The position numbers were made by a program, and so were the translations under genes. Source: Raillietiella orientalis (lineage: Eukaryota). Taken from it: a stretch of DNA of 64,000 nt. Positions 4,129 to 63,310 of the stretch are shown here, piece after piece; position 1 is the stretch's first letter, and each line of letters starts with the position of its first letter. The stretch spans positions 1,054,001 to 1,118,000 of the forward strand of contig JAYWIR010000043.1 of NCBI GenBank assembly GCA_036172245.1, read 5' to 3'. The notes below the pieces were generated by a model that searched no databases, was not told the origin of the DNA, and saw nothing but the letters and a program-made list of their open reading frames with translations.

Positions 4129-7038
4129 TCATCTCGAGATCGCTGGATGGAGACAAAGGAGAGAGCGGGAGAGCGCCTCTCGAACGCGCAGCCAGGGGGA
4201 GGACGGTGAGATCGTTGCGTGCTCCCTCTCAGGCGAAGAGCACTGCCCCCCCCCCTCTTCCCCCGGGAACCCGGCGAACACCAAGGAAGCGTTCCGCGGA
4301 CGAAGGAGCTGTTCGAACTCTTCCTCCCGGCGTGGATCACGCGGGAGGAGGAGCCTTGGGAAACTCCGCTGCCGGAGGCGGATAAAACAAAGAAGAAGAA
4401 AAAAATATTTTTCGGCGGCGCCATCGCCAAGAGGACCCAGAGGGAAGAGCGGGAGAAGTCGGGAAGCCCGGGAAGGGGAGCGCGCTGGCAGCGGCTGGCG
4501 GAAGCGACGTGGGCGTTCAGATGGGGCGATCCGCGAGCTCCCTGACTGGAGGACGCGTGCGAGGGAAGTCGCCTCTGGGCCAGACATGCCTCGGCCCATC
4601 GCCCGAGGTGAAGAAACAGGGCGGCGCTGTTGATCCAGCGCGCGCCGTACTCCAAGGCGCCTCCTCGGCGGAAGGATCCGCCACTCGCAGGGGTCGTCTC
4701 GTCGGCGTGCGTGGCTAAGCACTCCCCCACCTCCTTCCTCCCCCTTGGGAGCCGCCTACCTTCCTGCGCCGAAAACGGCGCGCGAGAGACGCGCGCAGAC
4801 CGAGCAAGTCGCCCCGTGTGCGTCGACGCCCACCTCGGTTGGGCGCCGAGAGATGTCAGCAATGAGCCTTGAAGGCTGTGCGGAAACACCGACGAAGAGG
4901 CTAGCAGGAGCGTCCGCAAGGGATCTGCTCCCGGGACCGGCTCCCGGCGGCGGCGGGAAACGCCTTCCGCCACGCTCCTCCCCATGCTGGTGCCGTGCCG
5001 GTCACGCACCTGCTTTTCCCCTCCCTTCCTCCTCCCACGCAAGTCCTCCTCCCTGCAGAGCTGCGGGGGAGGGAAGCTTCGGGAACGAGGAAGGAGCGAA
5101 GAAGTTTCGGCTACAGGGAAGCGGCAGTGGCCCCGAAGTCTCTCTTGTTGCCTCCCTGCGTAGGGAGCGCGGAAGGGGGAGGGAAGGGGGTCGCTGTCAC
5201 GCGCGCGCTAAAGGATCCGTCTGCCGCGTGGGGTGCGTCGGCAACTCGCGGCAGCCCCATACCGTGGAGAGATCGCTAGCGAAAGGCAAGGAAGAGCGGT
5301 CCGTTCCGATCCTCGTCCAGAAATCACTCTCCTCCCTCTTCCCTCCCTTTCCGCTGCTCTGGAGCGAGGACTCCTGGGATTCCTCACTCTCGGACGCGTC
5401 CCTCAGTGCTGAGTCTTCCCTTTGGGTGTTCGCCACCGTTCCGTTCCGTTTTTCTGGAACGTCAGGAGGAAGGAGGGGTTGCCAGGGAAACGACCTCCCG
5501 AGCTCGATCGCGAAGAGCGAACGGTTCCAGTCGCTTCATTTGCTCTGCAGCCCGCCGAAAAGCGGCTGCCCCCTTTGCAGTCTCCAGGCAGGGCTGCGCC
5601 CTCGACCTCCCTCTCTCGTGTGCGCTCTCCGCGGAGGAGGAGCTTCTTCGCACGCTCTCCATCCCCTCATCCCCCTTCCGCCACGAGGCGGAAGGGGGAT
5701 GAGGTAGGTAGGAAGCGCGTCTTCAGGTTCTCCCGTTCAAGCGGCGGCTTCCTACCGGAATCGCGCGAGCTTCGCGCCCGTCCCGCGCGAAGAGGTCAGG
5801 GCCGGCGTCCTTCCGCCAAGCGAAGCGATGAACGGGGATGACGACGCCATTCCTCGAAGAACCCTCCGGGCAAACGTGGCGGCATCGTCGCGAGCGTTCG
5901 CCCTCTTCCTCCGCGTCCCACCCGGGGACGGAATCGAAGAGACCCTCCCCCGCCACAGGAGCACGCGAGCAGCTTGGCAGCTTCCCCCTCGGAGTGCGCT
6001 CCCTGTTTGGGGGAGGGAGTGAGGAAGGGAAAAGGGAGAGGAGGGGGGGGGGGAGATTGGCAAGTGCCTTCTCCGCGAGCGTGCCCTCTTGCGAATTTCC
6101 AACTGCTGGAAGGAAAGCGGGGAGCGGTGCTGCCGCGATCCGTCTCAAGTGGTTGAGGCAGAGCCACGTCCTTCCTTTTCCTGGCGCCTGGGCGCCCACG
6201 GTGCCCGGAACGCCGCGGCGGAAGGGAAGCGGATGGGGGAAGATCACCAGAGCCAGCGTGTCGCGTGCCAAGAGCGTGCGGTCCCCTCCCCGCATGCTCC
6301 AAGGGAGCGCGATCGGCCGGGAAGGGGGGGATCCTTGCTCCGGGACGGCGGCTCTCTCGTGGAGGGTGCAGAGGGGTTCGCGGCATCAGCAAACCGCGAA
6401 CCTCCGGCAGCCCTCACGGCCGGAAGGACAGTTTGCAGGTCGTTCCAAACCAAAAAGCTTTCCTCCCTTTTCCCTGTGCCCGGAGCGCCCGTCATTCAGG
6501 CTCGAAGTATTACCGCGAGGGTCCGTGCGCCATTCAAATGCAAAGGGGGAGGAGGGAGGAGCGACGGGAAATCATCATCATCGTCATCGTCATCTGGAAT
6601 GCCGGGGCGCCATTCAAATTTGCCCTCGGGGGGAAGGGGGGCGGGGAACAGACCACGCGGAAAAACAGCAGGCGGCCGGCAGTAGGAAGGGTGGAAGAGC
6701 CGGTGGATGGCTCGCTCGTGTTCTTCGCTGCTCACCGCTGCGGTGGTCAGGACGCTGAGGAATCGCCTGAGGGTCAGGAGAAAGCGGGTGCTCCTCCCGG
6801 GACCGGAAAAAGTCCCTCTTTCTCCTCCGAGGAAGAACCCGGGAACCAGGAAGGGGTTTTCCCAGTCCTCCTTTTCCGAGGAGAACGACGCAGCTTTCAC
6901 GAAAATCCGCGGCGGCGGGCACCCTGGGATGGTCGACGACGGTCCCAACATCCCGTCCTCTGGATCCCACACGAGAAGATGCCCTCGGAGGAAGACGTCT
7001 CGCGCTGACGAGGAGAGGGCGGGGCTGCTTCTAGGCAT
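4129..7038 (-). CDS. Possible multi-exon GC-rich gene, tentatively a highly divergent STIL-like centriole protein; exon structure and 3' end unresolved
   Basis: ATG at 7038. Colinear peptide blocks in successive minus-strand ORFs resemble the vertebrate STIL N-terminal domain as I recall it: FLRGHLLVWDP / PRIFV / FFLG / LTLRRF (6496-7038), NDLQTVLPAVR (6244-6495), WLCLNHLRRIAAAPLP (5723-6295), and GAHSEGEAAKLL...PRVG after a pyrimidine-rich acceptor ending at 6003. Identity is low and the alignment is by eye. Confidence 0.35.
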
Positions 7039-7884
7039 CTTCCAGGCCTCGTACGAACCAAAGGAAAGTCTCCTCGGGAGCGCCGTTCCGCGAGAGCTTT
7101 CACGGTCGCTCGAAGCACCCGCATGCGGGGAGGAAGGGAAGGGTGGAAGAGGAGGAATAAGAAGATGGGCAACTTCCCGCTCCGCGTCGCGCGCCCTTGT
7201 GAATTCCCGATTGCGTGGACGCCAAGCGGGGGGCGAGCGACGCTGCGGTTCGCTACTTTGCTCCGCGTGGTCCGCCTTTCTTTTTTCCCCGAGCTCGCGC
7301 CGCCGTCCGAAGCCGCCCGCATCCGACGGGGCGTCCACTCGGCAAGCAGCGACACCTTCCTCGCTCGACCGCACCGTCTTGCAGAGTTCGCTGGTTGCCA
7401 CGCAACGGCGCCGAGCCCTCCCGAAGGGAAAGGAAGGACGAGAGAAAGAAAGGAAGGAAAGCAAAAGGGGGAAAGAGAGGAACGGGCGGAAGAAAGGAAC
7501 GGATTCCCATTGGAAAACCGCGGGAAGAGCGTCCTGCAAGTGCGCGCCAGCCGCGGAGCGCCGCGGAGCGCCGCGGTTCCGTCTCGGAAGACGAACCCGC
7601 GCGGAAGAAGTTGCGGCGGCGGCCGCTGCCACAGTCCCGCTGCGGCGGAGCCGGCGGACGACGGATAGTGCGACGAGAGGAGACAAATCGTTCGGGATGG
7701 AATCATTCGGAGGAACGTTGCGTGCACGAGGTCGGCGATGGCTGGTGAGGACTCCCGGCTGGGTCGCACGCACGCGCACGCGCACCAAAGAAGCACGCTG
7801 AAGACAAAAATAAAATAGCAGAAAACCCCAGCGAATTTTCATCGAGCAGCGGCGGCAACTCGTCGCGAGGTATGCGGGTTGATT

Positions 7885-10509: not shown

Positions 10510-11672
10510 GAGTGGCCAAGCTGACCAGGATGAACAACTGGATCTTCTGCCGGCCCGCGAACGGTAGCGCCTGGTTGCAGGAAACCGTTCGCACGTGGAC
10601 CAGGAACAAGGGAGCGAGCCTGAGGATGCGGCAGCGACTGGTGCACTCCTACAACAACTGCTCGCTGCAGGACGTCATCATGCAGCCCAACACGCGTGCG
10701 TGGGCTCGAAGAACTTCCCTAGCCGCGACAATGCCCTCTCTCAGGGAGCACCTGGGCAGTAGTCAGCCAAATGGGTGGTCCGATGTAAGATAAGTCTTCG
10801 GACTAAGGAGCTAGGTAGTTGGACTGCGGACTAGCTAACAGACGCTGCGACCCCAATTGCCCCACCGAAGGAACTGTGGTGCTGGGGTGAGCTGCTGGGA
10901 ATCCCGGAGGAAGTCCTCGAGTGTCCCCCAGCGCTGAAGAACAGCCAGACCCTCCCGTTCAAGTGTCAGGAGTCGGCACCCCTGCTGTTGCACTGGAGCC
11001 TCCCGTGCGACGCCCGCCGCTCTCACTGGACCCGAGGGGTTGTGGGCCCAAACTGCTGCAGGTGCGGGGCACGAGAATCGGAGCTTCCACACCTGCTCGT
11101 AGACTGCGTTGCCCTCCGGCCCCCATGGTTGCGTTATGCAACGGCTCTTGGCCCACCGACGGACAATCCCAGAGACGTTTTAAGAGCCTCTTTGTGAGCG
11201 ACGGCCCTTTGACTGCTGCATCCCTAGTAGCTCTTTGCTGCTGCCTACGCGGGATTGTGGCAGCCTGGAATTACGCGAGAGGAGGATGGAGCGAGAGGGA
11301 CGCCGTCTTCTTTGCCCTGCGCTTCCTGCGGACGGGAGGCAGCTAGATGGCCCCACCTGGGGCATGCACAGATGGAACTTGCCGGCATCCTGGAAAGAAT
11401 GCAGAGGGCGCCCTCCAGCGAACAGGAGCGCCATCCCTTCCCGTGCCCCCCTGAGTATTTTTTTTTTTTCTATTATTGATTTTAATTTTATTTTCATGTT
11501 TGATTTGTTTGCCCCCTCCCTCTCCCTCCGCCGCCGAGGAAAACCTCGCCGGCCGGCGTGCCGGTTACTCGGCAGATCCCGAGCATTTTCGGACAATATA
11601 GGGCCGACGGCCCTACACCTGAATGTTAATAATGTTTTATAATAAACCTTCCGGCGTGACTGGTTGATGAAC
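10510..11672 (+). mobile_element. 5'-truncated decayed L1/Tx1-like element: ORF2 C-terminus with CCHC finger, 3'UTR and terminus
   Basis: LHWSLP...NCCRCGARESELPHLLVDC (zf-RVT-type CX2C..H..C). AWLQETVRTWTRNKGASL matches AWRQETVQAWAKRNGTSL at about 56700 (minus). T-rich UTR, hairpin at 11533-11573, AATAAA at 11641 plus terminal motif. Confidence 0.8.
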
Positions 11673-13914
11673 CAAAGAAGGGGTGAGGGAGCGCTGGACT
11701 TCCTTGGGAGCTCCGGCGCTGCTGAGGCGGGGTCTCGCTCAGGGAGTGGAAACCGGGCAGAAGGAGGTGGGGCTGCTCCACTCTACGGAAGAGGTAGAGT
11801 TGAGACTGGGGTCTCGTAAGAGGCCCTGGCACGCCCGAGGACTGCTTTTCCCTCCGTCCTGCTGCTTCTTCTCGCCTCCAGCTTCCGGTCCGCCGGAGAA
11901 GATAGGCTCCTCCGGAACTGTGCCGGTGCTCCGGGCCGTCGCGGAGCTCCCTCGATGGCCTGAGGGGGATCTTGGCTCCGGCTTCCTATCCTTTGAGGGT
12001 GGGGGATAGGGAGCGGAGGCATCGATGGATAGGGAGACCCCTGATATTGACTCCTATCCCTCTTGGGAACGGGGTCATTCCCTTTGTTTCTTCCGCAGCT
12101 GCTCCCTAGCGCTCCGCAGCGCTGGCAGTCGTCCTGGCTTATATCGGTAGAGGAACGCCTGAAAGATGGGCAGCCTCAGCAGTCCTAATATGATGATGGC
12201 TGGGGACAGTGATCAGCGACGACACTCCTGCCGACCGTCTGTTTCCGACGCGTATCCTCCTCGGATGGGTTGCATGGATCGCCCAGGCGATTCGTGGGAT
12301 CCTTTCAGGTCCATGTGGACTCTGATGCGGGCTCTGTCAGGCAGCCTCGTCTAAGAGCCGGCGGCATCCCTGACCTTCGCGTGCACGAGTCCTGCCTGAA
12401 GAGACTTCCGCTGACCACCCGGGAGCTTCCTCCGGCGGGCAGGAGAGCCTCGAGGGAGAGCGGGAGGAAGACGGCGAGCCCGCAGCCTCCCTGCTCCTCC
12501 GCGCTCCTGCGACGCCCGAGGGGACTCGACGGAACTCCCGAATCGCCCGAGCGGGAAGTCCCCGCCGGGATTCACGTGGCGCGAGCGGGGGTCATCCGAG
12601 AAGGAACCCGGACGGGGTGATCTCCCTGGAGATCTCCGACGTGGGAGTGGAGGGGGCCGGAAAACACGGCCGCGTCAGCAGCCACGGGCAGGGGGAGGTC
12701 TCTGCCGCACTCGTCGTGAAAGGGCAGTCGGAGGATGGCACACATCCTCTCCCCTTGGAAGTGCTCCGGGAAAGCACTCCGCGCGAGCCGGCGGAGCTCC
12801 CCTAGAAGTCGCGACGAGGTTATCGTCGCTCCCTCACGTGAACCGGGGAAGTAGGTCGGTTCGAAATGTCCCGAGGTGCTGCCTCTCTTCTGCCGAAGAG
12901 CGGAGCCAGTGCAGTAGCATCAGTATCCCTGAGGGTGAGGCGTCTGAACTTCCCTTTTGTGAAGTGCTGCCACTTTTTCATCCCGTTCGCGCGGAACGGC
13001 GCGAGGTCAGCCGCGCTCCCAGAAAAGGTCATCCTCGTCTCGTTCTTCCCGGACGGATCGCGCGCCTTGTGATCCCGACCGAGGAAAACACCGTGGGGGC
13101 AGAAATCCCGAAAACCTTAGGGTGGGCATGGCACTTGGGAACCGCGGCGAGCTCCATGGTCCCTGGGCCTCGTGACCGAGGTTCAGCGCTCCGCCTACAA
13201 TCCAAGGCGCCTATCAGAATCGCTCCAAGAAATCATCGCGGATTTCAAGGGGGGCACCTTTCCACGTCCCCTTCGCACCAACCTCGCGCACGCTCCGTTC
13301 CCGCTCCGATCGTGGGGGCCTCTTTGCAGGCCGTAAGAAGAGGGGAAGGAGCTGCATCCCAACGGGTTTCCCTGGGAACTCGCTGAAGATGCTGTTTCTA
13401 ATAAGGAATGGCGATAGCATTTTTCATCTCGTAGGAGAGATCACTTTTATCTTGATCCGCTCCAGATTTCCCTTTCCCCCCTCCGCTCACTGGGATGTTG
13501 GTTTCTGGCGAGTTCTTTCATACCAACGGAGAGAGTAAGCTGGTCGCAGACCCACACGGAGCCACCATGAGGCGGAACCATCCCGACGCACTTGCGCTCG
13601 TCCGAAGGCCAGGAGCGATTGACTGGCGCATCTTTTGCTTCCCGTCGCCCCGATTCGATGTTCCTCCGCAGAGGGCGAACTCGTACCGATCACGGAAGTT
13701 CCAAATCCACGGTCGGCGCTGACTGGACGTGCGGCAGACCCTGAGCCAAATACAAAAGATCCTTCGACCTGTCCCTAACTCTGTTTCTTTCCTCTCCTGT
13801 GACGGTTGTGGCATGCTGCGAAGAAGCTTCGTGATGAGAAGCACACTGGGTTTCGTGCTTGTGTTTACAAAGGAAGTGCCGGGGAGAAAATGTGCAACTA
13901 ATGAGCAGTGGATC

Positions 13915-14510
13915 CATCTTGGCTGCGTCAGATGCGGCGAAAGAGTCCCTCCCTCACCTGCTCGTGGATTGTGTCGCCCTCCGCCACATGTGGGAAGACT
14001 TCGCTGCGTCCCTGCGGATCTCCGAGAGCAATTCCAGAGACGTTGTAAATCGCCTCTTCCTGCGCGACGCCCTCATGGCGGCCGCATCCCTTGTAGCAAT
14101 TTGCTGACTACGCGGGATCGTGGCTGCATGGAGCTACTCCAGAGGAGGCCAGATCGACAAGATCCCATGTATTTGCGTTCCCCTTCCTGAGGGCAGCGTC
14201 AAGATGGTCCCATCTGGGAATCTTGAAATAGGAACTTGCCGGCTCCTTACAAGGATGCAGAGGACCACACCCTCCAGCACACAGTAATCCCTTCCCGAAC
14301 CCCTTACTTTGTTTGTATTCTCTCCTTTTATTTTTCTTTTTGTTTGTCTCCCCTTCCCCTGTGCTGCCGAGGCGAACTTTGCCGGTCTTGCGCGCCGGTT
14401 CTCGGCAGGTTCCTTGCGAATATCCGTGGAATGTGGCAGGATCACGCATCCTGCCACTTCCCTGTATGTTCATTTTTTGAATAAACGCACCGACGTGACT
14501 GGGTGTCAAC
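13915..14510 (+). mobile_element. Decayed 3' fragment of the same element
   Basis: CVRCGE/ESLPHLLVDCVALRHMWEDFAASL (frameshifted CCHC finger), FLRAASRWSHLG C-terminus, hairpin at 14364-14408, AATAAA at 14480 plus terminal motif. Confidence 0.8.
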
Positions 14511-14578
14511 CATCTTGACTGCCTACTGTCCTTTCCATTTCCGCCTTCTCTTGAGGATGTGCTCTCACGAGCGTTGCT

Positions 14579-18544: not shown

Positions 18545-21075
18545 TCAGAAGTCAACTACTTGCAGCTGAAAACGATTGGAACCTTTTTTCAAGAGGTAAC
18601 CCTGCGTGTTCAGAGAATCAACGAAGGCATAGAAATCGACGACGGTGATCTTGGCGATGGCGGCTATTTCTTTAAGCTCCTTGAGATCGAACACGGACTT
18701 CGTGAATCTTTCAGCGTGTGCTTTCAAGGCGGAAATGAACTGCTTGGCCTTTTTCCTACTGCTCATCCCCGATCCATTTTGAGATCTCGTAAAGTCGAGC
18801 ATACCACTTTCGTTGCAGAAAGTGTCGATCAGACTATATTTCACGATGTCGATGACATCCAGGCAATCTTGGGCAGTGACATTTTCCCTGAGCTCAACCC
18901 GTGCTCGGGCCTCGCTCAAACGTATGAGGGAACGCAACTGACGAGTGGTAATCGGCACTCCACCTGATAAGCGATGCCGATGCCGTAACTCCAGATAAAA
19001 TTCTTGCAGCAAGAGAGCAGCCTCGGAGCTTAGTTTGGGGAAAACATACTTTTGTGCATAGGCAACATACTTCCTTAAAAGTACATGAGGCAAGGGGTTG
19101 TCCTCCAATTGTCTTGAAGATTTGAGTTTGCCAACAAGATGGCTATCCTTTCTCAGTAGAGAAGCACCGGACTGCAAGTGGTGCAGTGGAACTTCAGAAC
19201 TACTTGTCGAAGAGGCACATCTGCTGCTTCCCAACATGGACATGACGTGTTCCGAAAGACGACTATCTAAATCTTCATCTGGTTGGTCCAGCAATACGAA
19301 CACCAGATCGAAACGAGAAAGAAGGGCCCCGGATATTTTCAGATTCTCGGAAACAGTTTTTGCGGTATTATAATGGCCACCCACTGGATTAGCCGCTGCC
19401 AAAACTGTAGCATGTGCAGGAAGGCAGCAAACCACACCAGCCTTTGCGATGCTTACTGTCTGCTGCTCCATTGTCTCTAGCAGAGCAGCATGCTGTGTTT
19501 TCATTTTATCAAACTCATCAATGCAGCAGCAACCGTGATCGGCAAGCACCAACGCTCCAGCTTCTAAAGTGTAGTCTCCACCTGGACCATCTCTGCCCAA
19601 AGTAACTGTTAAACCAGAAACGGAAGTCGTATTCCCACAGACATAGACTCCCCGTGGGGCAATATTGGCACAAGCTTGTAACATTTGACTTTTGCCAAGC
19701 CCAGGATCTCCAACCAATAGTACATGTGGGCTACCTCGGATGGGAAGCTGATTCCGATCATTAAGATACTTTGCAGGTGCCCCAAATAAACCAAGAAGAA
19801 GACCAGCTTTCACAATTTCATGGCCATAAATTGCAGGGCACAAGGAAGAAACCAAAAGTTGGAACACATGTGGGTGAGACTGAACCTCCTGAAGGCCTGT
19901 CAGAATGTTACAAGCATATCTTTGGTCTGGCTCACCTTAATGTCATACAAATCTTGCAAGGTGAAATCCATATTTGCACTTCCAATTGAAGATTTACCAT
20001 CACTAATGGAATTCACTTGAATATATAATAGAAACAAACATTTATCATGGCTCTTCCGCACAGGCACCTGGTCATTGTTGACCTTCACTATTCCGGTAAT
20101 TGTCACCAAATCACCGGGCATACAGCAATCAACCAGATCATGAGTCAGCTGACAATCCACTGTCCGTGGTACACGCCCCCCTTCTTGGGTGTCCTCTTGA
20201 GCTACCTCCTGTATGTGCAGACTCTGCCAGTCAGCTGTTACAGTTAAAGGTGAGTTACGCAAAACAGAAAATCCTCTGCTTTGACAGTCTACGCTGGTGC
20301 ACTGTATAGGATAAGTCAGCTTTCCATCTGGTTGAGAAACAGCCTGTTCCTGTCCACAGCTAATGCATGAAAATGCAAGTTGAGTACATATGGGGCGAAT
20401 GTTGCTTACTCTGACCACTGTGCCTTGAATTGCTACCAATTTACCTAGAAACAGCACGAGCGATAGATGGCATCACCAAGATTAGACATTCACCATAACA
20501 GTTTGCCTTCAAATTTTTCAAGGGAGTGATGGGTCCAAAATTACTGATACGTGCATGAATCTGTGGAATTTCTGGAAAATCTGGTTCTTTCACAGCTTCA
20601 TCACCTTCTAATTCTTTTTCTTTTTGATATAAAATAAGTATCTGCTCGTGAATTTTTTCAGTTACCAAAGAGTACATTGCTAATGACAGGCAAGAAAATA
20701 CAACATCTGGTTTCTCTGCAACAAAGCTGACTGCCCTCCTTAACATGTAGAACTGATTATGTTAGGAGTGTTACCCAATGGTGTATTCCATCCTCTTTTC
20801 AACTGTTCATCCTCAACAAAGGATGGGTAATCAACCTTAAAACAGTGCTTTTCAGCAACTTCCGTCCAATTCCACAAATCTGCATTAGAATGCAAATAAT
20901 GCTTCAGTAGTTGCACTAATGGTAGATAAGACATAAACTCTGAAAGTAAATAAGTTTGTTTAGAATAAGATCATTCTTCCAAATGGTCCTCATGCAACAT
21001 AAGTTTGGATATGATTTTGTGCTGACCTCTGTAGTCCGAAAAATAAAGGTTCCAGCCTTTGTATTGGTCAGACAT
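18545..21075 (-). CDS. MCM8: DNA helicase MCM8 (about 767 aa; start codon tentative)
   Basis: Exons 21075-21027, 20939-20775, 20730-20494, 20444-19936, 19888-18545; GT-AG introns of 87, 44, 49 and 47 nt; total 2304 nt in frame. MCM8-type YKGWNLYF and LKANCYGKLVAIQGTVVRV, zinc finger CISC..C..C, Walker A GDPGLGKS, Walker B CCCIDEFDKM, arginine finger SRFD, C-terminal RSQNGSGMS..LNTQGYLLKKG. Confidence 0.95.
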
Positions 21076-23154
21076 GGCAAGCTGATGCTGAGTAAGATCG
21101 TCCCCATTATTGCCCGACTGGTGCTTCCATGCTTGTTTTTCTAATTTTAGATGTGCACTTGTAGTAGTTATCAAGAATTTGGGTCAACAGGCGTTTTACA
21201 ATGATAGCAGAGCATGTAACATTTAGAATCGCCACATAGGGACATGCAATTCGGCATTTGGATCAACTTAAATTTATCACGGTTTCATCAAACGAAGGCG
21301 AAGTCAGTTAAAGTGTGCAAACCCTTAATAATAATAATCATCATCATCATACTCATACTCATTGTGTACCATTTGCTTTCTTGGCGTCATTGCGGAATCG
21401 GGGTGGCTGGCAATCCTTTTTGTTCCAGAACTTAGGTGGTACTCTGTTTTTTTTCTTCTTGTCACGCGAGTCTTTTGGCATGCTCGTACGAAACCTTCAA
21501 GCAGCTGACCACGGTCCAGAAAGAGAGGGGAAAACAGCGCTACCCACACCGTCCGGCAGCACCTGCAACCAAAGATTCGCGCTCCCCTTGGCTGCGTTTC
21601 CTTGGCAGTCTTGCAGGGTTACACGCGCGTTCTTCGAGCTTGCAAATAACGCTGCTGGTGTTTCTGTCCTCAAAACCGAATAAATTCCAGGAAATCGTCA
21701 CCTTCCACATGTAACCTGAAATTGATGGGAACAGGACTGTTCCCTTGAAAAGAAACATTTGGCAACCCGCCTACTGAGTATCATTTGACTGCTTTCTAAT
21801 AAAGAGTACTCGGAATTCTTCATCCCGTTTTTCGGGAATTGAGCAAGCCGAATTAATTCATACTCTAATTATGTTGAAGCTGTGTGTCTACGTCTAGGAA
21901 ACCGCTTTTCTGTACTGGAGAAAACTTGCCTCTCTATATTCACTTGTGTAGATAAATCGAAAATCAAAACATTGATATTCAGACTCATCCACTCTAGCAT
22001 TGCTGGAGATTTTCTCCTGAAACCAATCTGTCGATTCATCCCCAAAGGATTCCTCTCTGTTCCAATTCCTTGGATCAGAAGGAGAAAAAAGTTTCTGTTT
22101 AAGTTCTTTCCATGCAATTTTAATATCTCCTTGATCTTTCACTTTTCATTATTGTTTGAGAGCTTGCAAGAAACACGCTTAAAGGTTAGTGCGACAAGAA
22201 AATGGAAAACCAGGTTCTATTATGAACAGGACACTGCAAGCATTCTTGAAACTTGATTGAACAGCCTTTTCTTTTATCGATGAAAGAAGGAAAAAGTGAG
22301 CATCTATGATGCAATTTTTAAAAGGACAATAGGTTTTCTAAATGCTTATGATGTACGTTTATTTCAATTTAGTTCATGCTCTTGATTGAAAAATCCAAAC
22401 ACAGTAGTGTATCGAAATTTCTATGAGGCACAGAACAATGACAACAACAGTTGATGAAACAAGTTTGTCACATTTCAGACAGCGGAGATGCTGGTTCGGA
22501 CCATACGTAAAGTAGATGAAGAGATACCAAAGAATGTAAGGCGGAGGAGAATCGTCCATATCATCAAATGTTGCCAAAACGCACACGCGAAAGAGAACTT
22601 CGACGGGCGCGCTTTTCATGAAAGGTTGCATGAAAGTTTTGAAGAAAGTATCAGACCAAAAAACGTTTGTTGCCACTTGATTCCAATTTGAGAATCAAAA
22701 CTGGAATGGCAAAAATCTTTGTGATTACTGTACGAGGAATATTCTTTCACTTTCTCTTTAGTTTGTTTTTCTTCTTCTTTTTAAGGAAACCTCTTCGTAA
22801 AACTTCCCTTAGCCTTCTTATTCCTTTAGGATCCGCGTTGACGAAAGAAATTCTCGAAGCAGATGTTCATTAAAATTTGATGCTTTTTAACTCAAAAAAA
22901 AAAAAAAAAAAAATAGCAAACATTGTAACAGAACAATTCCACCAAAAAAAATCCTTTTTTTACGATTATTTCTATGAATTTCGTAAGGTCTCCAAAAAAC
23001 AAAAACAAAAGAACACACACTGGTTGTTGTAGCTTTCTATCCAAGGTTTCCGAATTATATGCACAATATTTGGTTCTTACACTCGGATAGGATGGCATCA
23101 CATCCTCTTCATATTGTAGCTGGCAGATTAGTAGTAGATGAGAGTTTTCTTTTC

Positions 23155-42751: not shown

Positions 42752-45700
42752 TCAATCTAAGTGGTCTTGGAAAATTAATTTTACGTATCCAGGAGCTGCT
42801 TCCAAGGGAACAGCACAGAATGGACATGTAGCATGAAAACCATTTGTACCATGGGGTATGGGCGTACCATCCCAATACCTAACACCAAATCACTGGCAAC
42901 ACAACTACTTATTTAAGACTTACTTGACTGTAGCCTCTGATGTTATGTGTCCACAAGGATGGAAACAGTGTGTAGGAGGACCATCATCTACCCAGAAAGC
43001 AGCTTCTGCTCCAAAGCAAAGCTTAACAATAGGTCCTACTTTAAAACATATAGGACACATATGATTTTCATTATCTTTTGTATGTCCCCAATCATGTAAA
43101 CCCTGGACGTGTCCACAATTCAGATACACATATGGCTGCTTTTCAGAAGACAATAGTGAGGAAGTCTGTGCTCGTGGAATGACTAAGGTATTCAGACCCA
43201 CAGGACACTGAGGACGTCCAGCATTAATCTGATCTATCATGCTTTCCAACTGTTCATGTGTCTACCAAAGACCTACAACTGCTGCACATACATGTGTTGT
43301 CCCTCACCATAGATTTTTCTAATCCTTCAGTGGAACGCCATAACAGTGTTGCTCCACATAAATCAATTAAAGTTCCATCTTGCAAAACGTTGGTATCAGT
43401 TTCACACTAAGACCATCAAAACGATCGATCAATCAACAATTTCTGCCATACCTTATTGCCACACTTCTGCAGAGACCGTGATTCTCTTAACGAAAAGATC
43501 TCACCACATACTGAAACTTCCTTCCAAATTCGATATGGTTCTTTTAAATTATTACCAACAAAAGGGCCATTAGGGTGACTGATCAATACACCATTAGTAG
43601 TTAATCCATCCATTGTTTTATCATTATTAAACCATTTAGTAGCCTTTTCCTGTTAATAAATTCATATAGAGGAGCACACGCTAATGATTTGCCTACCCCT
43701 AGAAAAATGTTGAGAGAGGAATCAAATCCTGCTGCATATATACGACACATTTTGGGATTGCTGCGTTCACAAAAAATGCGACAAGCAAATCGAGAAATTG
43801 TACTTTGCGTGGAAAGTGGGGTTAATTTATTCCGTTGGTTTCCTGGTACAATGTCTATAACCACAAAATCAATGGGCCCTTCAGATGAGCGACCAAGCTG
43901 GAACATATCAGTCTCTGGATCTGGGGTGTACTCAACAACAACAGCTGATGTACGATTCAGTGTATAAGATATAGAGTGCTGGTTAGCATCTAACACTGCC
44001 TGGGAACACTGTGGCTTTGCTACCAGGTAACCTCTGCTGCGACGAACTCCATTAGCTTTAGCACGCCGATATAAAACAAATCGGCTACGTCGCCGTCCTT
44101 TTTCTCCTTCTTCGAGAAAGCCATTGTGCCTGAACAATTGATAATGAGAGCTTAGAATTTCTAAATGAATCAAATGTGAAGAAATGAAAATAAATCAGAG
44201 ATTAAAAAATACTTTCGAAAAATCATGAAAAATGAATAGCATGGTTATTTTAATCAATCACTACCTCAAATTCTAACCAACTTATAAAGAAAAATTTTCC
44301 CAGGATTATCATTTAGCATAATGGATTGTGGTTTTGAAGAAATGAAGCAAATGAAATAACAATATTTTCCAGCATCTTACTTTAAAATGGCTTTAATAAG
44401 CACAGATTGCCATTTGAAAACATAGGTATCATGAATCATAAATATGATTACATTCATGCACTTGGTCTTTTTTAATGAAAATTCGTTGAATGTTCTATGA
44501 AAGACAGGACATCAACAAATGCATTACCATCTGAATCATTCATTATTGCTTTTTTGGTTCAATATAACTGATGTATTCACTTTAGAATACTCAATTAGTT
44601 AAAATGAAAATAGCATTACAATACGAACCATATACTTACTAACAAAGTCACATGATTTTTCATGGAGGAAAATACTGTTTATTCCCCAAATGTTGATCTA
44701 TTGGACCTAAACAAGTTGACACACACAAAATTTCCAATTTCTCTTTTTGTAACTGGATAAATTAACAATTTCACCTGATTTGCTAATGTAGAAACATCAC
44801 ACTCTAAGATAATGGCCAAAATTGCTTAGTTGTTAATAAGATTCAAGAAAATTACACTAATCATAAAAAGATTTTCCTCCTATGATTGCGAACTAATGTT
44901 CCAGATCAAAATGAGAAAATGAAAATTTAGAGAATAAAGACTCCATTCATACAAAAACAAATTAAAAAAATGATTCATAAAGGAAACTAGGTAAATTAGT
45001 TTCAGCTCTTTTTAAGTCAGAATGTTTTAAAGAAAGTCCAATCTTCAATGATAAAAGAATGATCCAAATTAAAAATTAAGATACATTGAAGATAAAAAAA
45101 AAAAAAAAAAAAAGTTTAATATCAAGAAGCTTATCTTTAATACCAATTTCAGCTTTTGTATATTTGTTCCTACTGTTAGTTGAATTTTCATTGTTACTTT
45201 TAACTGAATATTGAATGACTCCTTGCAATTCATTTTCCTATTAATTCTTTCATTATTCATCTAGACCCTACTGAAGTATCCATTTGCAAATTACATTTTG
45301 GTTTATGCAGAATCTTCACTGAAAAATATTCGTGGATACTCCGAAGCCCTTGAGAGTTCCATTTATCTCTTTAAAGCCAATGCACATTATCCTGACTTCA
45401 TGAATTCCATTCTTCTAAAATACATATTTGCATAGAATGCTAAGTAGACACTAAACTGAAAAAGCAGGAGAAGGGGAGCAAGATGATACAATTGCTATGA
45501 ACTGGAAAAACTTTTCAAACAGAACTAAACCACAATAACTGGAATCTCATGAAACTGTGATGACTATGATGCATCATTTCCCTCTATCTAAACTGATTTT
45601 ATTACACTTATCTTTTCATCTAATATCCATGCAGTCAATTATATCCACTTTGATTATCGTCTTAACTACTTTTTGTCAAGTGAAGCTCTACAAACCTTCA

Positions 45701-50130: not shown

Positions 50131-50136
50131 TTCGGA

Positions 50137-50760
50137 GTTTACACCCGGTCACGCCTGGGCGTTTATTGTGAAATCATAATCACAAATAAACAGCCAAGGT
50201 AGGAATACATATAGAAAAAGTTTTATTCCTTTGTAATGCGATTACAAATCCTACTATTCCAGTACAATTTTCGGAGCGTTTCTTCTCGGAAACAGATTGA
50301 GGAGGGGGGGGGGGGAATGCAAAGCAAAAAATAAATCAAATAAATGAATCCAAAAGAGAGGATAATGTTTTTTAAAAGATTGCGTGCGGGAGGGAAGGGA
50401 ATGGATCACAGCACCCTCCTTGGAGTCCTCAGCGTGCTGTCCAGGACGCAGGCAACTTTTTCTTTTAGCCTAAGAGGTGTGGTCATCTCGTCGTCATCCT
50501 CAGGAAGGTCTCATCAAGGGGATGGCGTCCCAGTTGGTTTGACCCCCTGCGGCAAGGCAGCTTCCCGCGGCGTGGCAAGTGAAATCGCGCCACTCGTGAA
50601 GAGGCCGTCTCACCACCACGTCTTTCGGGTTGTCCGTTGGTGGTTGTAGGGTCGTAGCGAGACGTCCCTGTACACTCCGGAGGGCAACCCACTCATGATT
50701 CCGTTTCATCGCACCTGACACAGTTCGGGGTCACACACTTTCCTGGTCCAGTGGTGTCAG
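50137..50760 (-). mobile_element. Decayed 3' fragment of the L1/Tx1-like family
   Basis: LQPPTDNPKDVV matches LGPPTDNPRDVL at about 11150. T-rich UTR on minus; terminal AATAAA-cgcccaggcgtgaccgggtgtaaac at 50167-50137. Confidence 0.75.
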
Positions 50761-51982: not shown

Positions 51983-52514
51983 GTTTATCACCCGGCCACC
52001 CCTGGGCATTTATTCAAAATAATTTAGGAACGCGGTTTCCAACGCAAAGCAAAAAGTTCAAAAGGAGGGTCCGCCGACACTCAGGTCGGACACTCCAAAA
52101 GTCCGGAACAGATGGGAGAGGACAATAAATAAATTAATAAAGGGAGGGCGAGGTCAAGAGTCCATGACATCGGCTGTTTCTTCTAGAACCGTCGCAGAAT
52201 GCCGAGAGTTCCGTCTTGACTTGTTCATTCAGGTGAGGACACCTAGCAGCCGTCCTCATATAGGCGGTTGACATGCGGGCGACCTCCCTTCGCTGCTTGA
52301 GTCCATAAGAGATTGCGGGCCGTGACGATGGCGCGGATTCAGCATATCGTTGCGACCACGGCGCCAGCCTTGTCGCGACGAGGTCTTGGACTCCTGACGT
52401 TGCAGCGCATGCAAGTTCAGTTGAACTTTCGAAGACTGGCCTTCGTGGTAATCGTACTTCTCGGAAACCTAATGGGAATGCCCTGCGACTGGGCCACCCG
52501 GCCACTGGGTGCAC
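51983..52514 (-). mobile_element. Decayed 3' fragment of the family
   Basis: YMRTAARCPHLNEQVKTELSAF matches the family C-terminus (FLRLATRWPPLG..KDLVGIL). Terminal AATAAA motif at 52014-51983. Confidence 0.65.
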
Positions 52515-52879: not shown

Positions 52880-53743
52880 CGGCTAAGTGGGAGGTTTCCT
52901 GCCAGATCTCGGCCCGCAGGAAGCCTATCGGTGCTTGGACTACGCGGCAGCTGGCTGACGCGGCAACAGCAAGAACCGCCTCCAAAGGACTGGAACGTTG
53001 GGGAGAGCTCTTCTCCATTCGGCCTGAAGAGTTGGAATTATCCCCTTTGTTTATGGACTGTAAGCTGCTTTCCCTCAAGTGGCAGAAATAGGCGCTGCTG
53101 GTGCTGCACTGGGGTCTCCCGCGCAATGCGCGCCGGCACCACAGGACGAGGGGAAGCGCATCGCCGAACTGTGCCAGGTGTGGGGAGAAGAAGACTTTCT
53201 CCCACCTCATAGTGCACTGCATCGCTCTCGGGGACTTGTGGGAACGCTTCTCCGTGTCCCTTCCTCAACCCGCGGACGATCCCAGAGACCTTCGAGGCCC
53301 CTCTTCTCGCGGGACGCCATGACGCCCGCAGCCGCGATCTCAGCGCTATGTCGCGGCGAAGTGCGACGCCGTGGGAGGACGAAGCGACGGGGGGGCTGTC
53401 CCGCACGCCATCGCTTCCTGCAGGTAGCTTTGGGATGGCACCACCTGGAAAGGGAGAAGGACAAGCTCTCAGGCATCCTTCAAGTGATTCAGAGGGCTCA
53501 CCCACCACGAAATGTGATCCCTTCCCTTCCCCCAGCTGATCTTCTTGTCAGTTTCTACTTTTTGCTGTAGTTTGTTTCCTTTTTCTTCCTATTTTTTCTT
53601 CATCCCACCTCCCCTTCGTGGGCATGATGGACCTTGCCGGATCCCCCTCTTTTTCCTAATGTAATAATTCGAATCAGCGAGCCTTTTGTCCCCATCGACC
53701 CCTGCTAAAGGAATAAACGTCCCGGCTGACCCGGGTGTGGAAT
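52880..53743 (+). mobile_element. 5'-truncated decayed element: ORF2 C-terminus with CCHC finger and terminus
   Basis: IGAWTTRQLADAA..LSLKWQK..LHWGLPRNARRHH..NCARCGEKKTFSHLIVHC..RFLQVALGWHHL..LSGILQ; T-rich UTR; AATAAA at 53712 plus terminal motif. Confidence 0.8.
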
Positions 53744-60510: not shown

Positions 60511-60900
60511 GTTGTTACCCGGTCACGCCGGGGCGTTTATTAGAAACAAACAATTGCAGTATAAGGCCCCACTGTGGCCAACACAACAAGGACCTGCCGG
60601 GTCGTCGGTGCGCAGACCGACTTGACTCCACGGCAGCGGGGTGGGATGAGGAAAAAACAAAAAGAAAAAGAAAAGAAAATTAAAAAAAAAAGAATAGTTC
60701 TCTGGAGGGGATCATTGTCCGCTGTCCGCTTGGTGGAGGTTTCATCCTTTGCAGGATGCCGACGAGGTCCTTCTGCCTGTTTCCCAGGGGGGGCCATCGG
60801 GTTGCTAATCGCAGGAAGCGGGCTGCATATTCCATGGCATCCCTGTCGTTTGCATCTTCTACTTCGTCGGATCCACTCCAGGCCGCCACAATGCCGCGGA
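60511..60900 (-). mobile_element. 3' end of the family, antisense to the neighbouring ORF2
   Basis: DRDAMEYAARFLRLATRWPPLGNRQKDLVGILQR, T-rich UTR, hairpin at 60594-60636, AATAAA-cgccccggcgtgaccgggt at 60541-60511. Confidence 0.75.
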
Positions 60901-61433: not shown

Positions 61434-61890
61434 CTTCTCACCAGGGTGCTCCGGAGCGTTTATTCTTTCGAACAAAACAAATCGAGAGTCTGTGGCTTGA
61501 CCAGTGGTCCAGCCACGCGCGAACAACCAATAGCGAGCCTGCCGGGTCACAGGTTACCAGACCGGTACGGTCCACCACGACAGCAGAGGAGGTAAGGACA
61601 AAACAATAAGAAGAAACAAAAATTAAAAATAAATAAAAATAACATCTTAGGGGCACGGGAAGGGATCACAGTCTGCTGGGGAGCCGTTACATCCTTTCTA
61701 GGATGCCGGCAAGTTCTTCTTTGATTTGTGTGTCCAGGCGGGCCCATCCTGTCGTCATCCTCATGAATTCGTCGGCGCATTGGACGGCACCCTTATAGCG
61801 GGGTCCTCCCGTTGCCTTTCTCCATACGGTGACGATCCCGCGTAGGCAGCACAGGCGATGTACTTCGCATAGTCAGGCGCTATTACTCCT
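61434..61890 (-). mobile_element. 3' end of the family lying antisense between endonuclease and RT
   Basis: gaacttgccggcatcc also occurs at about 11376. T-rich UTR, hairpin at 61539-61586, AATAAA-cgctccggagcaccctggtg at 61464-61434. Confidence 0.7.
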
Positions 61891-61899
61891 TGCTGTATG

Positions 61900-63310
61900 C
61901 GGAGGCGCCAACCGAACACAGTTCCTCCGAGCTGCTTCTGCCAGAGGACTGATGCCCCTGCTGTAGACGAGGAGGAGCGCGCATGTCTCGACGAGCCCTT
62001 CATGGCGGAGGAAATCTCTTCAGCCATCGCGGGGCTCAAGAGACGGGAGGTGCTGGGCGATGATGGCCTGCCCGTGGAGTTCTTTCAGTGCGTCGCGGCG
62101 GAGCTCATCTCCCTGGTGCTCAGCCTCTCGTCGCTGAGGCGCGAGATGGACAATGTCCTTGCCTCGTTTCGCTCAGCGAAGGTGCGTCTCCAGACTTGTG
62201 CCACCTCAACTGGCATCCGATCACCTTGGTGAATTCGGACATGAAGTTCTCGAAGCTGTGGGTCGCGTGCCTAGGGAGGATCACGGAGACCTTGGTAAGT
62301 CCTGAGAAAACGTACGTCGTTCGCAGGATGTCCATGGATGAGAACCTCATTTTCGCGCGCACCTGGCTTCAGCTGCAGAGACGCATTGCGCAGGACGGTC
62401 AAGCAGCGGAGACAGCCACGTAAGACTGCAGGTGTAGGCACGGATGGAGGGAGAAGACTCCTTGGCGGATCGGTCAGCATGAAGCTTCCGTCTGCATCAA
62501 TCAAGAGCTTCTACTGGAGCTCTTGGAACTCCTCGGTCTTCCGTCACACCTGCTCTCCTACTTGCGCTCCTGCTGGCACCATACGTTATGCTGCATCTCT
62601 TTCAGTGTCCGCTACGTGTACGGCATACCGGGCGGGGCGTAAATCAGAAAGACAGCTAGCTCTTAAACCCTGTGCTCCTCAGCATCTTCTTCGAGTTGAT
62701 GCTTAAGGAATACAGACTGGCTCTCTCCAACCTGCCGAGCCCCTGTCCAGGTATGCCGACCGTGACCGCCTACGCGGGCAACCTGCTTTCTCTGTTGTCC
62801 AGTTCCATCCCAGCGGCTAGACTCGTAGACTTCTTCGAGATGCTCCTTCGGGGAGTGGGCATGAGCATCAACAGGTCGAAGTCCACAATTGTCCCAGTTG
62901 GCTCCACGTGGAAGTGGCAGTCCGACTGATCCTCCTGGAGATCCCCATGTTCAGGTATAAGTACTTCGGTATACAGTTGGACGACTTCTGCTCAGCAGAA
63001 GCGTGGTCGGACTGCGTTCAAAAGTTTTTTCACCCAGTTCCTCAGGCATTTAGCACCGGTTCTGAAAAGAAGGAATAGCCAATGCCAAAGACCCCATCCC
63101 TACCCTCCTTTTCGTCTGTTTTTCTATTTTTTTTTTATCCATTTATGGTTCCCTCCATTCCGTTCCGGACTTCCAGAGTGCCCGACCTGCGTATCGGGGA
63201 GACTTCCCCTTGAACTTCTTTTGTCTTTGTTTGGGAACTGAGTTCCCAGATAGTTTGTTCGGGCATTTTTGTGTGTGAATAAAGGCTCCGGCGTAACTGG
63301 GTGATAAATC
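61900..63310 (+). mobile_element. Decayed L1/Tx1-like reverse transcriptase domain joined (internal deletion) to the family 3' end
   Basis: LDEPFMAEEISSAIAGLK..GDDGLPVEFF, NWHPITLVNSDMK, AYAGN (YADD decayed), GMSINRSKS; frameshifts. Then T-rich UTR and AATAAA at 63278 plus terminal motif. Confidence 0.85.

Follow-up and report, generated by a model that had tools for sequence, protein, structure and literature searches.

A hairpin kept by base-pairing selection in the poly(A)-free 3' tail of an L1-like retrotransposon family of Raillietiella orientalis

The window, that is, the whole 64,000-nucleotide stretch of DNA analyzed here, taken from positions 1,054,001-1,118,000 of contig C43, contains at 14.4 kb a 5'-truncated LINE of the L1/Tx1 group that spans positions 13,927-14,509 and belongs to subfamily F3. 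Similarity between this copy and others begins at about 13,917-13,923, and the copy is flanked by a short target-site duplication that 6 of about 5,000 random 13-mers match equally well within 600 nt. The following features were identified in this copy.

13914..13926 (+), left target-site duplication, 13 bp with one mismatch to the right copy
13927..14287 (+), broken remnant of the ORF2 C terminus, from the CxxC zinc-binding region to the stop codon, identified by translation
14305..14361 (+), U/C-rich tract of the 3' untranslated region (UTR), seen in the sequence and also in the family consensuses
14364..14408 (+), hairpin A, with the outer stem 14364-14371/14401-14408, the inner stem 14381-14386/14394-14399, and the loop 14387-14393
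14433..14457 (+), hairpin B, a perfect 10-bp stem with a 5-nt loop
14468..14486 (+), helix C, an A/U helix with AATAAA (14480-14485) inside its 3' arm
14489..14509 (+), terminal stem-loop T, decayed in this copy; the element ends in two A residues, without poly(A)
14510..14522 (+), right target-site duplication

An AATAAA hexamer followed by a short GC stem-loop occurs at eight places in the window, and broken ORF2 C termini with the CxxC motif lie upstream of most of these ends. The other 3' ends examined are listed below.

11533..11573 (+), hairpin A of an F4-type copy, inner arms 11548-11553 and 11560-11565, AATAAA at 11641
60594..60636 (-), hairpin A of an F8 copy, with U-A in place of two pairs, AATAAA at 60541
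61539..61586 (-), hairpin A of an F5a copy, one pair lost by private decay from a stem that is perfect in its subfamily, AATAAA at 61464
63180..63198 (+), inner stem of an F6-type copy, A-U replacing G-C, outer stem absent, AATAAA at 63278
52074..52089 (-), inner stem of another F6-like copy, AATAAA at 52014
53610..53743 (+), 3' end of an F9 copy, in which hairpin A keeps its 5' arm and has lost the loop and the 3' arm; B and T are kept
50136..50317 (-), 3' end of a lone diverged copy, with the terminal motif and no recognizable hairpin A

The lone diverged copy has four other matches in the genome, all short. In family F9, hairpin B is long, about 14 bp, and near-identical copies of its locus in the window (53610-53743, +) are present elsewhere on the same contig, C43. 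Host genes in the window include MCM8, as two long exons (18545-20472, -), and an exon encoding a Pellino FHA domain (43601-44194, -); both point to an animal genome.

Young, intact copies of the element exist, with an ORF2 of 1,201-1,208 amino acids. The intact ORF2 proteins of F1 and F7 contain an endonuclease (PF03372) and a reverse transcriptase (RT; PF00078) above cut-off, and the ORF1 of intact relatives has a CCHC zinc knuckle (PF00098, 21.6 bits against a cut-off of 20.8). A C-terminal CxxC...H...C motif is visible, with a below-cut-off match to zf-RVT (PF13966, E = 0.021) in one of the two proteins. A quick RT tree placed the element inside a 63-row group of plant, fungal, tick, frog, and fish L1-type RTs (SH-aLRT 98), separate from R2-like rows, and beside a tandem-array family also found in this genome (SH-aLRT 97); in this tree, built without a named Tx1 reference set, no supported joining with Tx1 elements was found, and the position within the L1 group is unsupported. 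Protein searches with the RT returned only distant relatives (best identity, 32%), the best named homolog being Danio BAC82621, which we take to be one of the sequence-specific elements of Kojima and Fujiwara. Target duplications of 11-22 bp were identified at 25 of 197 ends, many of the retrieved loci stopping short of the 5' junction. Family-specific target preferences of 3-6 nt follow the element end; no multicopy RNA-gene target was seen at element ends. The young family F1 inserts repeatedly at few targets (L251 (-), near 1162; L042:4380-4470), which include the 5' end of its own element, yielding tandem copies, and, in related LINEs, the region that encodes the endonuclease.

To compare the tails, 241 distinct 3' ends were collected by own-genome searches of the 210-Mb genome; because the ends were gathered via the terminal motif and similarity, the sample favors intact tails. 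The eight largest clusters, with 194 ends, were divided into 12 subfamilies, whereas the other 47 ends (pairs and singletons, some truncated or decayed) stand outside the counts. In all, 18 consensuses were built, from the 12 subfamilies, two supported sub-clades split off from them, and four further families of 20 copies each. When the tree was computed from the tails minus the hairpin, all but one of the 12 subfamily groups (11) came out monophyletic.

Hairpin A is a genuine RNA structure and one of up to four hairpins in the 3' UTR tail of an L1-like retrotransposon family. All six stems quoted in the earlier note on this DNA are present in the sequence as described there, and at 14364-14408 the hairpin is both the minimum-energy and the centroid fold, with a loop of 7 nt, one more than the 6-nt loop of the family. 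However, the four main window copies fold only slightly better than shuffled sequences (z = -1.36, -1.96, -1.50, and -0.89), and for the copies at 11,533 and 61,539 the minimum-energy fold differs from the quoted hairpin. A single window thus cannot establish the hairpin, and the case was built on comparison of copies. The folding energy of the hairpin A consensuses is likewise unremarkable (z from -0.4 to -2.6).

The inner stem covaries. In a sequence-only alignment of 42 copies, three per subfamily, chosen by identity outside the hairpin, 86.6% of the cells are paired, a level that none of 500 shuffles reached (75.3% paired) and that falls to 23-44% when the partner is slid, and changes on both sides were found at five of the six inner pairs. 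Across 17 subfamily consensuses, the five core pairs hold in 82 of 85 cells, with five different replacement Watson-Crick pairs; the three unpaired cells belong to F2c, F5b, and F7. Numbered from the loop, pair 1 is C-G, U-A, or G-C; pair 2 is G-C or A-U; pair 3 is G-C throughout; pair 4 is C-G or U-A, the latter seen in F1 and, as a separate case, in one F3 sub-clade; and pair 5 is C-G or U-A. The inner stem is common to F1 and F7, whose ORF2 proteins are 70% identical. When 25 substitutions were placed at random on the tree, equal pairing together with five new pair types arose in 0, 0, 0, and 1 of 10,000 runs under four settings, in a subfamily-level simulation with an assumed root state in which F9 was left out and F11, F15, and F48 were anchored by the 5' arm. 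Position-wise parsimony is a weaker test, with three clean double changes on inner branches and 22 of 720 partner permutations scoring as high; the simulation is preferred because position-wise parsimony splits double changes over adjacent branches.

The proposal of the earlier note that pairing is conserved while sequence varies is therefore borne out for the inner stem, in both the larger alignment and the tree simulation, but not for the outer stem. RNAalifold retained four inner pairs on the alignment and did not predict the outer stem, which is present in 9 of 12 subfamily consensuses and absent from F1, F6, and F7. Variation of the outer stem is one-sided, without a double change, and the both-side counts that it received in the 42-copy alignment stem from rows without the motif. 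The inner stem itself is present in 17 of the 18 consensuses. The exception, F9, retains the 5' arm and has lost the loop and the 3' arm, leaving 12 Watson-Crick cells of 100 (20 copies). Nevertheless, F9 amplified, with at least 40 matches in the genome search; hence, hairpin A, which lies about 100 nt from the element end, is not indispensable. What every sampled family shares is not hairpin A but the terminal stem-loop after AATAAA.

Two other readings were weighed against the substitution patterns. One, which the earlier note had itself raised, holds that the paired changes reflect CpG decay of a GC-rich palindrome or chance. The stem does contain a CCGG palindrome, one covarying pair is a CpG, and single copies score weakly against shuffles; yet CpG transitions are not elevated (0.0467 at 7,520 sites, versus 0.0468 at 22,987 other G/C sites), three of the four double-change core pairs lie outside CpG, and one is a transversion pair. 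Moreover, the two sides of the stem change together in F3 copies (13 with both sides changed, 2 and 0 with a single side, and 18 with neither), although largely through one event. Already refuted by the CpG rates and the tree simulation, this explanation is exceedingly improbable. The other reading, that inserted copies were taken over by the host, which preserves their hairpin in the genome, would gain from the slightly lower private substitution rate in the stem (0.023, 39/1,702) than outside it (0.029, 781/26,619); however, this difference falls short of significance (p = 0.14), and intact UTRs were favored by the way the copies were searched for. In addition, terminal-branch changes break pairs: of 113 changes away from a Watson-Crick pair, 67 produced a mismatch, 36 a G-U pair, 6 a new pair, and 4 a double mismatch. 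Host co-option is accordingly very unlikely. Inserted copies decay alike in the stem and its flanks, which indicates that selection acted on active lineages. Hairpin A is thus shown to be kept by base-pairing selection in actively copying lineages and not in dead genomic copies, and its decay after insertion is as expected for an RNA signal that belongs to the element. As a separate observation, these LINE copies from across the genome show no CpG hypermutability, suggesting little CpG methylation of repeats.

The earlier note placed hairpin A between the T-rich tract and the AATAAA; this order holds, but hairpin B also lies between hairpin A and the hexamer. Hairpin B, the A/U helix that often buries the AAUAAA, and the invariant terminal stem-loop were all absent from that account. 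The sequence of hairpin B varies among families, its consensus z-score is below -3 in 5 of 12 subfamilies (-5.0 in F3), and one pair covaries in the F2/F8 branch (C-G in 11 and U-A in 5, of 18). At the same place in F2 and F8 copies, for example, at 60560-60590 (-) in the window, an H-type pseudoknot is possible, with two 4-bp stems and linkers of 3-4, 0, and 5 nt; the pattern fits 34 of 40 copies, the first stem being paired in 31 and showing no double change, whereas the second covaries. In 10 of 16 consensuses, the pairing of the AAUAAA with sequence 5' to it in helix C outscores at least 97 of 100 shuffles, a level not reached in F2b, F2c, F2g, F8, F9, and F15. The 5-bp stem of stem-loop T is invariant and its loop variable in 12 of 12 consensuses; stem-loop T was found in all 16 consensuses built, the ends having been gathered by its own motif, and because the stem is invariant it yields no covariation evidence. 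At the Rfam gathering score, no match was found in the window, and the two sub-threshold matches at 14280-14530 are chance matches. SECIS, K-turn, and ribozyme identities for the tail, judged on consensus features, were dropped for want of Rfam support.

The 26-nt terminal motif has 330 exact copies in the genome, compared with none for the reversed control; a degenerate version had no matches in metagenome contigs. A host target sequence as the origin of this motif was ruled out because target duplications begin after it, starting 3-4 nt past the motif in 20 of 25 cases. The AATAAA is invariant and lies 22 nt before the element end, and the terminal A-run is 0-5 nt long in all 194 scored ends (of 241 collected), with no poly(A). 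Animal L1-type elements are taken to recognize poly(A). The element described here is an L1-group LINE that lacks the poly(A) end of the relaxed type, of which human L1 is an example.

The same end design recurs in the sister L1 lineage, the tandem-array family, whose ORF2 is 26-28% identical: at 23 junctions, this lineage ends with a hexamer resembling AATAAA, a GC stem-loop that is unrelated in sequence (fold z of -2.0 and -1.3 in two copies), and about three A residues. The hairpin A motif was absent from the one UTR of this lineage that was folded. The sister family forms tandem arrays with a period of about 5.6 kb, many of them on small contigs (L041:5092-5132 (+), L009:912-952 (+), and L043-L059). 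A CCCCAC-type motif was rejected as the insertion target of this family because the flanks diverge after the motif, which is therefore the family's own end. R2-like RT frames lie beside 28S rRNA sequence (L060:1-2136 and 5037-7811), U1 and U2 snRNA genes lie amid LINE arrays (L055:569-731 and 6479-6641; L059:8116-8293), and in L094 the 3' ends of two families meet head to head within about 300 nt, with a short rearranged junction in common.

Hairpin A consists of a 5-6-bp stem and usually a 6-nt loop, most commonly CUGCGU, in which U2 and G5 are fixed in all 16 consensuses with a six-nucleotide loop. In F11, the loop closes as a cUUCGg or cUGCGg tetraloop atop an 11-bp stem, and the loop is changed in several amplified subfamilies (F5b, F15, F48, and five copies of F2a). 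UNNG loops can form U- or Z-turns, according to the text compared (PMC5311481), so that a turn of either type in loop A is a fair inference.

Two further explanations were considered. It can be envisaged that four base pairs between loops A and T form a kissing contact that compacts the tail and brings hairpin A near the priming site, an arrangement compatible with recognition of the tail by the element's own proteins. In 10 of 15 subfamilies (F1, F2a, F2b, F2c, F2g, F3, F4, F5a, F6, and F7), three of which are represented by 1-3 copies, most copies could form all four pairs; U2 and G5 match fixed letters in loop T, and one F48 subfamily (6 of the 12 copies read) shows full Watson-Crick replacement in both loops. 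Against this, the middle pairs are lost with no compensating change in F5b (6/7), F11 (10/11), F15 (16/16), and the other F48 copies, as well as in 5 of 20 F2a copies and half of F8; the commonest form has G-U at two of the four pairs; and, as far as the compared text goes (PMC5311481), a UNNG turn accounts for U2 and G5 equally well, with F11 being a tetraloop. On this balance, the kissing contact appears quite unlikely. Alternatively, the hairpin could be selected because host factors act on it in RNA metabolism, be it the stability, export, or translation of the RNA or the choice of its 3' end, and not for recognition by an element protein. The hairpin lies upstream of an invariant AATAAA whose distance of 22 nt from the element end is a usual cleavage distance; the frequent burial of the AAUAAA in helix C suggests regulated 3'-end formation; a loop common to diverged families suits a single conserved host partner; and F9 manages without hairpin A. 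Conversely, a long A tail is found in none of the scored ends, and the tested LINE 3' stem-loops in the literature compared act via the element's protein. We therefore regard host RNA metabolism as an unlikely basis for the selection.

Tails of this kind have precedents in other LINEs. The closest is a monocot L1 lineage (the LINE1-1_ZM group, with ZmSINE2/3; Ohshima 2012) with a covarying 3' hairpin (PMC3472496; review, PMC3747384). Like the present element, it belongs to the L1 clade and combines compensatory stem changes with conserved loop letters, and stringent recognition was inferred there, in the portion of the paper compared (PMC3472496). The same text describes a single hairpin within the last 45-50 nt, shared with SINEs, whereas the present tail comes from an animal lineage, has as many as four helices spread across about 150 nt, carries one stem-loop 3' of the AATAAA, and lacks poly(A). 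In the main text compared, nothing was noted that the two tails share in sequence (PMC3472496). According to that text, poly(A) ends occur in 224 of 233 L1 families of flowering plants, and a SINE-shared tail occurs in the L1 clade of Chlamydomonas (PMC3472496). Structured L1-clade tails have so far been reported for one monocot lineage and a green alga.

In the stringent L2 LINEs of zebrafish (ZfL2-1 and ZfL2-2), the stem is exchangeable, the loop is specific, and ORF2 binds the stem-loop, as described in the sections compared (PMC4176376). These elements and eel UnaL2 resemble the present tail in their exchangeable stem and conserved loop and offer a model for ORF2 binding; they belong to another clade and carry one essential, family-specific stem-loop followed by short repeats (PMC4176376, same sections), whereas here different families have the loop in common and F9 is without the hairpin. 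Tx1-clade elements (Tx1L, Keno, Kibi, and Koshi) share with the present element two ORFs, a CCHC knuckle, an endonuclease with RT, and family-specific target preference, but are only 27% identical to it, and a comparable tail is not described in the Tx1 text compared (PMC4494074). For human L1, a predicted 3' UTR stem-loop was proposed as an RT recognition site; in the text compared, that proposal comes from predicted position and not from cross-family covariation, and human L1 uses poly(A) (PMC5135761). In our literature search, with most subscription journals and Repbase outside its coverage, no description of the present tail was found.

By analogy with these systems, the tail may work like that of a stringent-type LINE. 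We favor, with a probability of roughly 0.6, the reading that the element's ribonucleoprotein, probably ORF2, recognizes the tail, with T positioning priming and A contributing. The structured tail would be the cis signal by which the ribonucleoprotein, most likely through ORF2, picks its own RNA in a stringent-type recognition; stem-loop T would set the start of target-primed reverse transcription, replacing the poly(A) tail; and hairpin A would serve as an upstream binding or folding element, contributing but dispensable, that is read via its loop. A cis-acting role for hairpin A, as the earlier note suggested, fits the sequence comparisons, and the hairpin probably belongs to the handle that lets the enzyme of the element select its RNA. 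Several observations speak against this reading: F9 amplified despite losing the loop and the 3' arm, several amplified subfamilies have altered loops, hairpin A lies far from the element end and folds with unremarkable energy, and the loops are near-identical across diverged families and hence cannot provide family-specific recognition of the ZfL2 kind.

What is new is an animal L1 lineage with a tail that combines phylogenetically tested covariation, the absence of an A tail, and young intact copies; since other LINEs are known to carry this type of signal, the finding is only moderately surprising. A more far-reaching picture, which is speculative and on balance improbable, is that, in an animal, an L1-type lineage would copy itself without poly(A) from a 3' domain folded into four helices, in which helix C would hide the AAUAAA, loops A and T would touch, and ORF2 would measure the start from T. 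Given that a second lineage, with 26-28% ORF2 identity, has the same end design with unrelated sequence, such structure-guided, tail-less priming would be ancestral for this branch and, if true, folded-domain priming would be a natural model of stringent recognition in L1. The question of the transition from stringent to relaxed recognition becomes testable in an animal L1 lineage, in which natural variants with a lost hairpin or altered loops are ready-made controls.
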